Assembly: GCF_054482595.1 (NCBI RefSeq)
Contig: NZ_CM137008.1
Reading direction: 5' to 3' (one strand)
DNA: 64,000 nucleotides
This document shows, piece by piece, positions 15,749 to 50,390 of this stretch. Made by a program: the position numbers and the translations under genes. The notes beneath the pieces were generated by a model. The model ran no database searches. It saw only the letters and a program-made list of their open reading frames with translations, and had not been told where the DNA came from. Position 1 is the stretch's first letter, and each line of letters begins with the position of its first letter.

Positions 15749-16309
15749 ATGAACAAGTTTTTATTTGCCGCTGCATTGATCGTCAGTGGCCTGCTCGTTG
15801 GCTGTAATCAACTCACCCAATACACCATCACCGAACAAGAAATTAACCAGTCGCTTGCGAAACATAATAATTTCTCAAAAGATATCGGTTTACCCGGCGT
15901 GGCTGACGCCCATATTGTTCTGACAAACCTGACCAGCCAAATTGGTCGCGAAGAGCCGAATAAGGTTACCCTAACCGGAGACGCCAATCTGGACATGAAC
16001 TCCCTGTTCGGTAGTCAGAAAGCGACCATGAAACTGAAGCTGAAAGCGCTGCCCGTGTTTGATAAAGAAAAAGGTGCGATCTTCCTGAAAGAGATGGAAG
16101 TGGTCGATGCGACGGTACAACCGGAAAAAATGCAAACGGTGATGCAAACGTTGCTTCCCTATCTGAACCAGGCATTACGCAATTACTTTAACCAGCAACC
16201 TTCTTACGTCCTGCGCGAAGATGGCAGCCAGGGCGAAGCAATGGCGAAAAAACTGGCGAAAGGCATTGAAGTGAAGCCAGGCGAAATTGTCATTCCATTT
16301 ACTGATTAA
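15749..16309 (+). CDS. yceB: Lipoprotein YceB (186 aa)
   Basis: Translation from ATG 15749 MNKFLFAAALIVSGLLVGC with lipobox; ORF track extended upstream into grxB. Confidence 0.92.
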   Translation: MNKFLFAAALIVSGLLVGCNQLTQYTITEQEINQSLAKHNNFSKDIGLPGVADAHIVLTNLTSQIGREEPNKVTLTGDANLDMNSLFGSQKATMKLKLKALPVFDKEKGAIFLKEMEVVDATVQPEKMQTVMQTLLPYLNQALRNYFNQQPSYVLREDGSQGEAMAKKLAKGIEVKPGEIVIPFTD

Positions 16310-16346
16310 TCACGAGGGCGCATTCGCGCCCTTTATTTTTCGTGCA

Positions 16347-16362
16347 AAGGAAAACGTTTCCG
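16347..16362. promoter_or_regulatory. Putative PurR operator upstream of pyrC
   Basis: aggaaaACGTTTccgc palindromic core AAACGTTT resembling pur box; pyrC is a known PurR target. Confidence 0.4.
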
Positions 16363-16376
16363 CTTATCCTTTGTGT

Positions 16377-16403
16377 CCGGCAAAAACATCCCTTCAGCCG
16401 GAG
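16377..16403 (+). promoter_or_regulatory. pyrC leader hairpin sequestering the Shine-Dalgarno sequence
   Basis: CCGGC (16377-16381) can pair with GCCGG (16397-16401), which overlaps GGAG 11 nt upstream of pyrC ATG; fits the known start-site-switching translational control. Confidence 0.45.
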
Positions 16404-16414
16404 CATAGAGATTA

Positions 16415-17461
16415 ATGACTGCACCATCCCAGGTATTAAAGATCCGCCGCCCAGACGACTGGCACCTTCACCTCCGCGATGGCGACATGTTAAAAACTGT
16501 CGTGCCGTATACCAGCGAAATTTATGGACGGGCTATCGTAATGCCCAATCTGGCTCCGCCCGTGACCACCGTTGAGGCTGCCGTGGCGTATCGCCAACGT
16601 ATTCTTGACGCCGTACCTGCCGGGCACGATTTCACCCCATTGATGACCTGTTATTTAACAGATTCGCTGGATCCTAATGAGCTGGAGCGCGGATTTAACG
16701 AAGGCGTGTTCACCGCTGCAAAACTTTACCCGGCAAACGCAACCACTAACTCCAGCCACGGCGTGACGTCAATTGACGCAATCATGCCGGTACTTGAGCG
16801 CATGGAAAAAATCGGTATGCCGCTACTGGTGCATGGTGAAGTGACACATGCAGATATCGACATTTTTGATCGTGAAGCGCGCTTTATAGAAAGCGTGATG
16901 GAACCTCTGCGCCAGCGCCTGACTGCGCTGAAAGTCGTTTTTGAGCACATCACCACCAAAGATGCTGCCGACTATGTCCGTGACGGAAATGAACGGCTGG
17001 CTGCCACCATCACTCCTCAGCATCTGATGTTTAACCGCAACCATATGCTGGTTGGAGGCTTGCGTCCGCACCTGTATTGTCTACCCATCCTCAAACGCAA
17101 TATTCACCAACAGGCACTGCGTGAACTGGTCGCCAGCGGTTTTAATCGAGTATTCCTCGGTACGGATTCTGCGCCACATGCACGTCATCGCAAAGAGAGC
17201 ACCTGCGGCTGCGCGGGCTGCTTCAACGCCCCAACCGCGCTGGGCAGTTACGCTACCGTCTTTGAAGAGATGAATGCTCTGCAGCACTTTGAAGCATTCT
17301 GTTCTGTAAATGGCCCGCAGTTCTATGGGTTGCCGGTCAACGACACATTCATCGAACTGGTACGTGAAGAGCATCAGGTTGCTGAAAGCATCGCACTGAC
17401 AGATGACACGCTGGTGCCATTCCTCGCCGGGGAAACGGTACGCTGGTCCGTTAAACAATAA
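16415..17461 (+). CDS. pyrC: Dihydroorotase PyrC (348 aa)
   Basis: ORF translation [26 protein letters not shown], HxH metal-binding motif. Confidence 0.97.
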
Positions 17462-22442: not shown

Positions 22443-23363
22443 ATGACGAATCTACCCAAGTTCTCCACCGCACTGCTTCATCCGCGTTATTGGTTAACCT
22501 GGTTGGGTATTGGCGTACTTTGGTTAGTCGTGCAATTGCCCTACCCGGTTATCTACCACCTCGGTTGTGGATTAGGAAAACTGGCGTTACGTTTTATGAA
22601 ACGACGCGCAAAAATTGTGCATCGCAACCTGGAACTGTGCTTCCCGGAAATGAGCGAACAAGAACGCCGTAAAATGGTGGTGAAGAATTTCGAATCCGTT
22701 GGCATGGGCCTGATGGAAACTGGCATGGCGTGGTTCTGGCCGGACCGCCGAATCGCCCGCTGGACGGAAGTGATCGGCATGGAACACATTCGTGACGTGC
22801 AGGCGCAAAAACGCGGCATCCTGTTAGTTGGTATCCATTTTCTGACACTGGAGCTGGGTGCGCGGCAGTTTGGTATGCAGGAACCAGGGATTGGCGTTTA
22901 CCGCCCGAACGATAATCCACTGATTGACTGGCTACAAACCTGGGGCCGTTTGCGCTCAAATAAATCGATGCTCGACCGCAAAGATTTAAAAGGCATGATT
23001 AAAGCCCTGAAAAAAGGCGAAGTGGTCTGGTACGCACCGGATCATGATTACGGCCCGCGCTCAAGCGTTTTCGTCCCGTTGTTTGCCGTTGAGCAGGCTG
23101 CGACCACGACCGGAACCTGGATGCTGGCACGGATGTCCGGCGCATGTCTGGTGCCCTTCGTTCCACGCCGTAAGCCAGATGGCAAAGGGTATCAATTGAT
23201 TATGCTGCCGCCAGAGTGTTCTCCGCCACTGGATGATGCCGAAACTACCGCCGCGTGGATGAACAAAGTGGTCGAAAAATGCATCATGATGGCACCAGAG
23301 CAATATATGTGGTTACACCGTCGCTTTAAAACACGCCCGGAAGGCGTTCCTTCACGCTATTAA
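22443..23363 (+). CDS. lpxL: Lipid A biosynthesis lauroyltransferase LpxL (HtrB), 306 aa
   Basis: Translation from ATG 22443 [30 protein letters not shown]. Confidence 0.95.
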
Positions 23364-25500: not shown

Positions 25501-25599
25501 CGTTGTTTTTGCCAGATGTGGCGTGAACGCCTTATCCGACCTACAAAATCTTGCAAAATCAACACATTGCAGGAGCGATGTAGGCCTGATAAGCATAGC
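25501..25599. repeat. Pair of REP elements (BIME-like)
   Basis: gccagatgtggcgtgaacgccttatccgacctac and gatgtaggcctgataagcatagcgcatcaggca in inverted arrangement. Confidence 0.65.
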
Positions 25600-35075: not shown

Positions 35076-35828
35076 GTTGTCACCCTGGACCTGGTCGTAC
35101 ATTTAAGAAATTAAATCATTTCAACTTGGTTGTTAACGCAACCTGTATTTTGTTAACGCTGCGTTACGATGGAAAGTATGTCTGCGGAAATATTTTTAAT
35201 AACTCACCCGCGCGTTGTATTTTTCTTTTTTTGTTCATACCAAAGTATTAAAAGCCACGTAAATACGCTGTTATCTACGCAAAAAATATTTTGTTTTCTT
35301 TTAAATCTCCGTTTTCCGCTAGCAAAAAACACCAGACAGTCATTCTTCTTGCCCGTCGCTGATTGCTGCGATATGTCTTGCGCACAAGCCGTGACAAACC
35401 TCGTCTTTTTGCAGTAAAAAATTGTCCACGGTGGTGTGGAGAAAAAACAAGAACGTTTTACATGACGAAAGGACTACACCGAAATATTTTTTATATGCAT
35501 TATTAGTAAGTTAGCACCATTTGTATGATTTTTTAAAATTGTGCAATAAAAACCAAATGTACAACTTTTCTATCATTCCTAAACTTAATAAAACCTTAAA
35601 GTTAACATTTCAATATAACGAGTTACATTTAGTTACATGTTTAACACTTGATTTAAGATTTGTAATGGCTAGATTGAAATCAGATGTAATCCATTAGTTT
35701 TATATTTTACCCATTTAGGGCTGATTTATTACTACACACAGCAGTGCAACATCTGTCAGTACTTCTGGTGCTTCTATTTTAGAGGCAGCTGTCAGGTGTG
35801 CGATCAATAAAAAAAGCGGGGTTTCATC
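35076..35828. promoter_or_regulatory. csgBAC / csgDEFG divergent intergenic regulatory region
   Basis: 753-bp AT-rich gap between divergent csgB and csgD; known to hold both promoters and many regulator sites; individual sites not resolved here. Confidence 0.7.
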
Positions 35829-36479
<651 letters not shown>

Positions 36480-41372: not shown

Positions 41373-41460
41373 GGTGAGGTGTCCGAGTGGCTGAAGGAGC
41401 ACGCCTGGAAAGTGTGTATACGGCAACGTATCGGGGGTTCGAATCCCCCCCTCACCGCCA
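41373..41460 (+). tRNA. serX: tRNA-Ser (anticodon GGA), serX-type, 88 nt with encoded CCA
   Basis: GGTGAGGTGTCCGAGTGGCTGAAGGAGCACGCCTGGAAAGTGTGTATACGGCAACGTATCGGGGGTTCGAATCCCCCCCTCACCGCCA: long variable arm, GGA anticodon, TPsiC GGTTCGAATCC. Confidence 0.97.
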
Positions 41461-43695: not shown

Positions 43696-44076
43696 CTATT
43701 CCGGAGGGTTACTTTCCGTTTCGGTCGCAGGATAAACAGCCAGATAAACGTAACCACAGGAGCCGAGGGTGTCGGCATCGCAGGTCAGCCCTTTCGCATA
43801 CAGCGTGACGGTATGCTGATGCCGGGGATTCAGTTCACCGCTGGTGAGCATGAGTTCCAGTTGTTTCATCAGCAGTGGAAAAGCCTGGTCCAGATGGTAT
43901 GCATCCGCATTGCTGAACCGGCCTCTGATACCGGCGCGGTCTGCAAGGTAATGCAACCGGTTACCCTCCTGCACCAGACGTGCCCCGAAACAGGGCGTCA
44001 CGATGCAGGGCAGCCCCCACCAGGGGCGGTCTTTGTTGTCGTCGGGAAGCGTTGTCCCGGGGAGTGTGTCTGACAC
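43696..44076 (-). CDS. cbeA: Type IV toxin-antitoxin antitoxin, CbeA/YeeU/YfjZ/YafW family (126 aa)
   Basis: GTG start 44076 preceded by GAGGA; translation (M)[51 protein letters not shown]. Confidence 0.85.
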
Positions 44077-50133: not shown

Positions 50134-50348
50134 CAGCTTTTCCTTACAGAGGGTGAATAAAAAAGCCGGTACCCACAAATGTGGATACCGGCAGGTACAA
50201 AACAGCATGGTCAGATAAAGTGGTTTTTCCCGGACATAAATGCTTCCCCTCTCTCATCCGCCAGAGAAGTATCAGTCCGTTGTGTGCAATTCCGTTCTGC
50301 ATGATGAAGAGATTCAGCTGCCTTTTCGCAGACCATTAACCACCATAA

Positions 50349-50390
50349 ACGATCGATGACAACGATCGATACCTGTTTTATCGATCGTTT
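50349..50390. promoter_or_regulatory. agn43 phase-variation switch: three GATC (Dam) sites in the presumed OxyR operator
   Basis: GATC at 50352, 50365 and 50384 within cGATCgatgacaacGATCgatacctgttttatcGATCg, about 220-250 nt upstream of Ag43 ATG. Confidence 0.75.

Follow-up and report, generated by a model that had tools for sequence, protein, structure and literature searches.

The stretch of DNA analysed here (64,000 nucleotides, hereafter the window, with positions counted from its first letter) is part of an E. coli chromosome, with the gene order mdtH, grxB, yceB, pyrC, dinI, bssS, solA around the leader considered below. The pyrC coding sequence, for a dihydroorotase of 348 residues, occupies 16415–17461 of the plus strand, beginning with the ATG at 16415. 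This assignment, made in an earlier sequence-only reading of the window, is borne out both by a match of the open reading frame to the NCBIfam model TIGR00856 (556 bits; cut-off 293) and by annotation, in that a 401-bp probe spanning the site is present in 5,425 of 5,426 complete E. coli genomes, where it is annotated "pyrC" and "yceB". The upstream gene, yceB, ends with its stop codon at 16309. A terminator scan places the intrinsic terminator of yceB at 16314–16333 (plus strand), as an 8-bp stem, six of whose pairs are G-C, with a T-run behind it that extends to 16340; this terminator forms the upstream limit of the pyrC control region. The T-run stops one base short of the −35 hexamer of pyrC, and the entire control region is therefore packed into approximately 75 bp. 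The stretch 5′ of the −35 hexamer is T-rich in the window and A-rich in other genera. A mechanically called open reading frame lying over the leader (16342–16575; 77 residues, GTG start) is out of frame with pyrC and unsupported, and was rejected.

Comparison with the published pyrC promoter, which the sequence-only reading had proposed as a check, gave 100% identity over the 141 bp from 16300 to 16440 with K-12 MG1655, the strain used to establish how pyrC is controlled. Of 5,424 E. coli genomes, 5,360 have a 78-nt pyrC leader with no difference from that of the window. Judged by its sequence, the element in the window is, base for base, the pyrC leader of E. coli, and is already known; because the 141 bp around it are identical to K-12 MG1655, the mechanism published for K-12 applies to the window sequence.

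The promoter is a weak one. Its −10 hexamer, TATCCT (16365–16370; plus strand), was read directly from the sequence, matches TATAAT at four of six positions, and corresponds to positions 1–6 of the Rfam PyrC_leader model. The −35 hexamer, GTGCAA (16342–16347; plus strand), was assigned from its spacing (17 bp upstream of the −10 hexamer) and its conservation, and matches TTGACA at only three of six positions. A sigma-70 consensus scan of 16200–16500 called no promoter; since the pyrC promoter matches just 7 of the 12 consensus positions, we regard the scan as uninformative and not as evidence against the promoter. The alternative transcription starts T, C, C and G (16376–16379; plus strand), placed by the geometry of the sequence, lie 6, 7, 8 and 9 nt past the −10 hexamer; the arrangement that defines the start-site switch, with C and G starts 7 and 9 nt after the −10 hexamer, is thus found here as C16377 (+7), C16378 (+8) and G16379 (+9). 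We take these four starts to be those named T1, C2, C3 and G4, with C2 and G4 dominant; C16377 is presumably the high-CTP start and G16379 the low-CTP/high-GTP start, as reportedly assigned by Wilson et al. 1992.

For comparison across species, a single PyrC protein scan of GTDB representative genomes yielded 80 loci, 33 of them in the Enterobacterales; 31 Enterobacterales loci together with the window gave 32 leaders that were aligned by anchoring at the −10 hexamer and at GGAG. A −10-like hexamer followed by C, C and G at exactly +7, +8 and +9 is present at 31 of the 33 Enterobacterales loci, and the −10 form TAT(C/G/T)CT is conserved across the order. The sequence RTGCA(A/T) lies 17 bp before the −10 hexamer in 30 of the 32 anchored leaders, including that of the window, the exceptions being two Photorhabdus. 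The full conserved geometry can be written as RTGCA(A/T), 17 bp, TAT(C/G/T)CT, 6 nt, CCG.

The spacer of this promoter is almost filled by a PurR operator (pur box), AGGAAAACGTTTCCGC, at 16348–16363 (no strand assigned), which is identified by weight matrix, conservation and literature and which takes up 16 of the 17 bases between the −35 and −10 hexamers, so overlapping the core promoter. The sequence-only reading had claimed a pur-box-like palindrome at 16347–16362; the palindrome is present, although its register has to be moved by one base, with the dyad centre between C16355 and G16356. The 16-bp palindrome is imperfect, its symmetry consisting of the AAACGTTT core and one outer G/C pair only, such that 5 of 8 half-site positions are symmetric. 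With a weight matrix made from the 28 ChIP-supported PurR motifs that Cho et al. 2011 list in their Table 1 (PMC3159470), the site scores 17.05 bits and ranks first among ~128,000 window positions. The exact P value is 8.3e-7 per position, which corresponds to an expectation of 0.11 such matches for the window and 1.5e-4 for the yceB–pyrC intergenic region; the ChIP-supported sites themselves range from 11.8 to 25.0 bits, and 7 of the 28 lie below the pyrC pur box. A search with the consensus ACGNAAACGTTTGCNT, allowing up to two mismatches, found only this site in the window (two mismatches, minus strand), a result which is not significant window-wide (0.68 expected by chance). Significance was taken from the weight matrix and exact P in its place. 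The next-best pur-box-like matches to the matrix, at 23059–23074, 36438–36469 and 43951–43966 (all minus strand), score 13.7–15.1 bits and were treated as chance, with ~0.4–0.9 expected at such scores; the match at 23059–23074 (15.1 bits) falls within the lpxL coding sequence.

Among the Enterobacteriaceae, a pur box scoring at least 14.6 bits occupies the same promoter position in 17 of 17 leaders. It is absent (below 7 bits) from the leaders of Yersinia, Rahnella, Erwinia, Rosenbergiella, Pectobacterium, Brenneria, Acerihabitans, Hafnia, Edwardsiella and Photorhabdus. Position 13 of the operator is C in the window, as opposed to G in 27 of the 28 ChIP sites, and each of the 17 Enterobacteriaceae pyrC operators has either C or A there. 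The right half of the pur box, CTTT(A/C)CGCT, is semi-conserved even in species without the box. Together, position 13 and the conservation of the right half in such species suggest that the promoter spacer may be constrained by something besides PurR.

The pyrC site resembles PurR operators at large (consensus ACGNAAACGTTTGCNT) in its 16-bp dyad, central CG, AAACGTTT core and location between −35 and −10, a placement found by Cho et al. in 14 of 32 regulated promoters (PMC3159470). It differs from them at position 13 (C, not G) and also at positions 2 or 16, and in that pyrC repression is reported to be weak and the site was missed by ChIP-chip. This raises the alternative that in vivo the palindrome does not function as a PurR operator, being either vestigial or very weak, or else the target of another LacI-family repressor with the AAACGTTT core, for example RbsR. 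That PurR ChIP-chip in vivo detected 13 of 15 known targets with pyrC not among them (PMC3159470) fits such a site, as do the C at position 13 and the symmetry of just 5 of 8 half-site positions. However, the score falls within the range of the ChIP-supported sites and above seven of them, and the operator keeps an identical promoter position throughout the Enterobacteriaceae leaders despite their divergence elsewhere. In addition, pyrC expression is altered in the transcriptome of a purR deletion (PMC3159470), and passages in two independent papers (PMC3159470, PMC6245113) describe the repression of pyrC by PurR as direct and modest on the authority of Choi & Zalkin 1990 and Wilson & Turnbough 1990, and both cite in vitro PurR binding together with ~2-fold purR-dependent repression. 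We therefore consider a non-functional palindrome to be quite unlikely. For a functional PurR operator, modest repression fits the departure from consensus, namely a C at the near-invariant G of position 13, and this same C may be the reason why ChIP-chip missed pyrC.

In terms of mechanism, the PurR–hypoxanthine/guanine repressor would bind the 16-bp pur box at 16348–16363, and PurR so bound would occlude RNA polymerase. The binding itself is taken from the published experiments on the identical K-12 sequence, not from the present analysis, and repression by occlusion is likely because the operator fills the −35/−10 spacer.

The second control element lies downstream of the start sites. Folding and Rfam both place a hairpin at the very 5′ end of the transcript, with the 5′ arm CCGGC at 16377–16381, a 15-nt loop, AAAAACAUCCCUUCA, at 16382–16396, and the 3′ arm GCCGG at 16397–16401 (all plus strand); in the RNA starting at T16376 the arms reach U16376 and A16402, respectively. 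The Shine–Dalgarno (SD) sequence GGAG (16400–16403; plus strand), read from the sequence and invariant in the anchored alignment, lies 11 nt before the ATG, and its first two to three bases are overlapped by the 3′ arm. A second SD-like motif, AGAG (16407–16410; plus strand), lies 4 nt before the ATG and, in the sequence comparison, occurs in Escherichia only. GGAG is reportedly the SD1, the functional one, of Liu & Turnbough 1994 (cited in PMC4491880), and AGAG the SD2.

The Rfam (release 15) family PyrC_leader (RF02372) matches 16365–16414 of the plus strand over the full model (positions 1–50 of 50), with 68.7 bits against a gathering score of 50 and E = 2.8e-11 in a local search. Its consensus 5-bp stem corresponds to CCGGC/GCCGG, in which all pairs are standard and enclose the 15-nt loop, and the same stem is predicted by ViennaRNA. 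The coordinates given for the two arms and for a GGAG SD by the sequence-only reading were exact. Its further claim, that the hairpin can sequester GGAG, holds in that the stem includes the SD, but the overlap is partial, with just two of the four GGAG bases inside the stem, or three with the U16376 start, which adds A16402. In the C-start RNA, G16400 and G16401 are each paired with a probability of at least 0.99.

The stability of this stem depends on where the RNA begins. For RNAs starting at U16376, C16377, C16378 and G16379, the stem-only energies are −8.9, −7.0, −3.7 and −1.3 kcal/mol, respectively; the cost of opening GGAG is 6.9, 5.3, 3.3 and 2.4 kcal/mol, and that of opening 16395–16420 is 11.9, 10.2, 8.2 and 7.9 kcal/mol. 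The hairpin is thus dependent on the extra 5′ C residues (stem −7.0 vs −1.3 kcal/mol; SD opening 5.3 vs 2.4 kcal/mol). The sequence-only reading had staked its hairpin claim on this folding from alternative starts, and the claim stands, as an SD-including stem is stable in the C-start RNA and almost unstable in the G-start RNA. The mean SD-unpaired probability at equilibrium barely differs (0.24 vs 0.29), the contrast appearing only in the opening energy, because weak alternative pairings around the SD in the G-start RNA blur the former measure. Across 32 species the SD-unpaired probability was noisy, and opening energies were used in its place.

Comparison of the leader folding with shuffled sequence gave z values of −0.7 to −1.45, which are not significant, and shuffle z-scores were set aside as a validation for a stem of 5 bp. 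GC-rich 5-bp inverted repeats with loops of 10–25 nt occur approximately once per 213 nt, and 3 of 29 other window open reading frames with an SD-like motif have some 5-bp upstream partner for it, although arms made up entirely of G and C are found for pyrC only. Taken alone, neither the hairpin nor the pur-box consensus match exceeds chance; their support comes from position, conservation and published experiments. For the hairpin, significance rests on a 5′ end that lies exactly at the start-site cluster, on conservation across species, and on the curated Rfam model.

Across the 28 distinct leaders, 93.6% of the cells for the five stem pairs hold a standard pair, compared with at most 45% in slid registers. 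The loop is not conserved in sequence and varies from 15 to 82 nt in length. Compensatory change is limited to the anchored +10 pair, where G-C is replaced by C-G in two Yersinia (CCGC/GCGG), and in a covariation test 22 of 500 shuffles reach the observed score. The comparative evidence is thus the conservation of both arms against a variable background, and not covariation (the arms are almost invariant).

RF02372 passes its threshold in Escherichia and Citrobacter only, with 34–45 bits in other Enterobacteriaceae and no match beyond that family among the loci scanned. The promoter and start geometry and an SD-proximal complementary arm are kept in Yersiniaceae, Erwiniaceae, Pectobacteriaceae, Hafniaceae and Morganellaceae, whose leaders have loops of 27–82 nt and do not match RF02372. 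That the Rfam model under-detects long-loop leaders is a modest detail, with no new biology in it.

Variants of the leader are also seen. At the two Photorhabdus loci, which have two tRNA genes just upstream of pyrC, the 3′ arm GCCGG lies directly after GGAG (GGAGCCGG) and not before it, so that the hairpin would cover the spacer from SD to AUG and not the 5′ part of the SD. Leaders of the CCCCGCC type have a C-C mismatch within the stem. For Yersinia, Rahnella, Hafnia and Acerihabitans, the terminal hairpin is missing from the ViennaRNA predictions, and on these folding models the switch may be weak or lost there. The distance from GGAG to ATG is 11 nt in E. coli and E. albertii, which have the extra AGAG (16407–16410 in the window), and 6–9 nt, with no AGAG, in the other genera examined. 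We give an even chance to a broader reading of these comparisons, in which the start-switch architecture is older and wider than the Rfam family, the pur box is a later addition confined to the Enterobacteriaceae and deliberately sub-consensus at position 13, and the switch may differ or fail in Yersinia, CCCCGCC-type and Photorhabdus lineages.

The arrangement of start sites, hairpin and SD is consistent with the outlined mechanism of pyrimidine control. RNA polymerase may start at T16376, C16377, C16378 or G16379. At high CTP, initiation would occur mainly at C16377, and the 5′-CCGGC of the resulting RNA would pair with GCCGG at 16397–16401, burying the first bases of GGAG and leading to poor ribosome binding. 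At low CTP and high GTP, initiation would shift to G16379; the transcript would then be missing the two 5′ C residues, form at best a marginal 3-bp stem, and leave the SD free for translation. In the published account, the two extra 5′ C residues allow the 5′ end to fold so that the ribosome-binding site is sequestered (PMC6524683), and at low ratios transcription begins at G and the message is translated (PMC6524683; also PMC4491880). The anatomy of the leader, the start-dependent stability of the stem and its overlap with the SD, as well as operator position and conservation, were observed in the present analysis; nucleotide sensing by the polymerase and the effect on translation come from published experiments with K-12, whose sequence here is identical. 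In the primary literature, compensatory arm mutations reportedly restore regulation that single-arm mutations abolish.

The 5′ hairpin might instead act mainly on mRNA stability, by protecting the 5′ end from, or exposing it to, RppH and RNase E, with ribosome binding not the main target. A stem that begins at the very first nucleotide does have what is generally regarded as the classic geometry of a 5′ stabiliser, and the degradation rate of the longer transcript is affected (PMC6524683). The same source, however, ascribes the change in decay to reduced translation and not vice versa; overlap between the 3′ arm and the SD, found in nearly all species, is needless for a pure stability element, and at high CTP a stabilising stem should lead to more expression, opposite to the regulation observed. 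A role confined mainly to stability is thus very unlikely. Still less credible is that the CCGGC/GCCGG repeat arose by chance and has no regulatory role, with pyrimidine control exerted by, for example, attenuation or a protein repressor: the folding z-scores and the frequency of comparable repeats and SD partners given above would allow it, but both arms are kept across the order while the loop changes in sequence and length, in 31 of 33 loci the CCG start cluster is precisely where the 5′ arm begins, a curated Rfam family has the same stem, published genetics and biochemistry bear on the identical sequence (PMC6524683), and a terminator scan found nothing resembling a terminator from the start sites to the ATG.

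Returning to sequestration of the SD by a start-dependent hairpin, the closest known system is the E. coli K-12/Salmonella pyrC leader itself (Wilson et al. 1992; Sorensen et al. 1993; Liu & Turnbough 1994; RF02372), which has the same −10 hexamer, T-C-C-G starts, stem, 15-nt loop and GGAG. No difference was found, and the window has the same element in another E. coli strain. At the pyrD leader of E. coli and Salmonella, too, CTP and GTP govern whether transcription starts at C or G, and a 5′ hairpin again sequesters the SD (PMC6524683); as pyrC has a pur box, so pyrD has a PurR box listed in the ChIP table (PMC3159470). It is, however, a different gene at a different locus outside the window, and is likened to pyrC here through the review (PMC6524683) and not through its own sequence. 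Sensing of nucleoside triphosphates by RNA polymerase at or near initiation, with no dedicated repressor, is also a feature of pyrBI and codBA (reiterative transcription) and of pyrBI and pyrE (UTP-sensitive attenuation) (PMC6524683, PMC4491880). Those systems depend on stuttering at a U-tract, or on a terminator whose action is coupled to translation of the leader, whereas the pyrC leader has no T-run at its start and no terminator from the start sites to the ATG.

Taken together, the region is almost certainly the native E. coli pyrC promoter and leader, carrying two independent, previously described controls. The sequence-only reading had proposed such dual control, by a PurR operator and start-site switching, and the proposal agrees with the identity of the 141 bp to K-12, with the coincidence of its stem and that of RF02372, and with the literature (PMC6524683, PMC3159470, PMC6245113). 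It had also presented the leader as a sanity check and not as a novelty, a judgement that we share, as every defining feature that can be tested on the sequence was found and the element is already known. The leader serves in this sense as a positive control, a textbook regulatory region recognised from raw sequence with near-exact coordinates, and it supports both the gene assignment and the strand. Its wider interest is as a classic case of "repression without a repressor", where the choice of start site is the means by which RNA polymerase reads the CTP/GTP ratio, and where a difference of two nucleotides at the 5′ end of the RNA decides whether the pyrC message can be translated. What the comparison adds is incremental: the order-wide geometry of the switch, the Enterobacteriaceae-specific pur box, the 11-nt SD–ATG spacing specific to Escherichia, and the variant arms in some lineages.

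Elsewhere in the window, further Rfam families matched above their gathering scores. On the plus strand these are the sRNAs ES036 (CssrF; 25545–25587) and ES056 (35682–35773), and an 85-nt tRNA at 41373–41457. On the minus strand they are the IS102 RNA (50152–50388) and an ALIL frameshifting pseudoknot (60561–60677), which together point to the presence of insertion sequences in the window's distal part.
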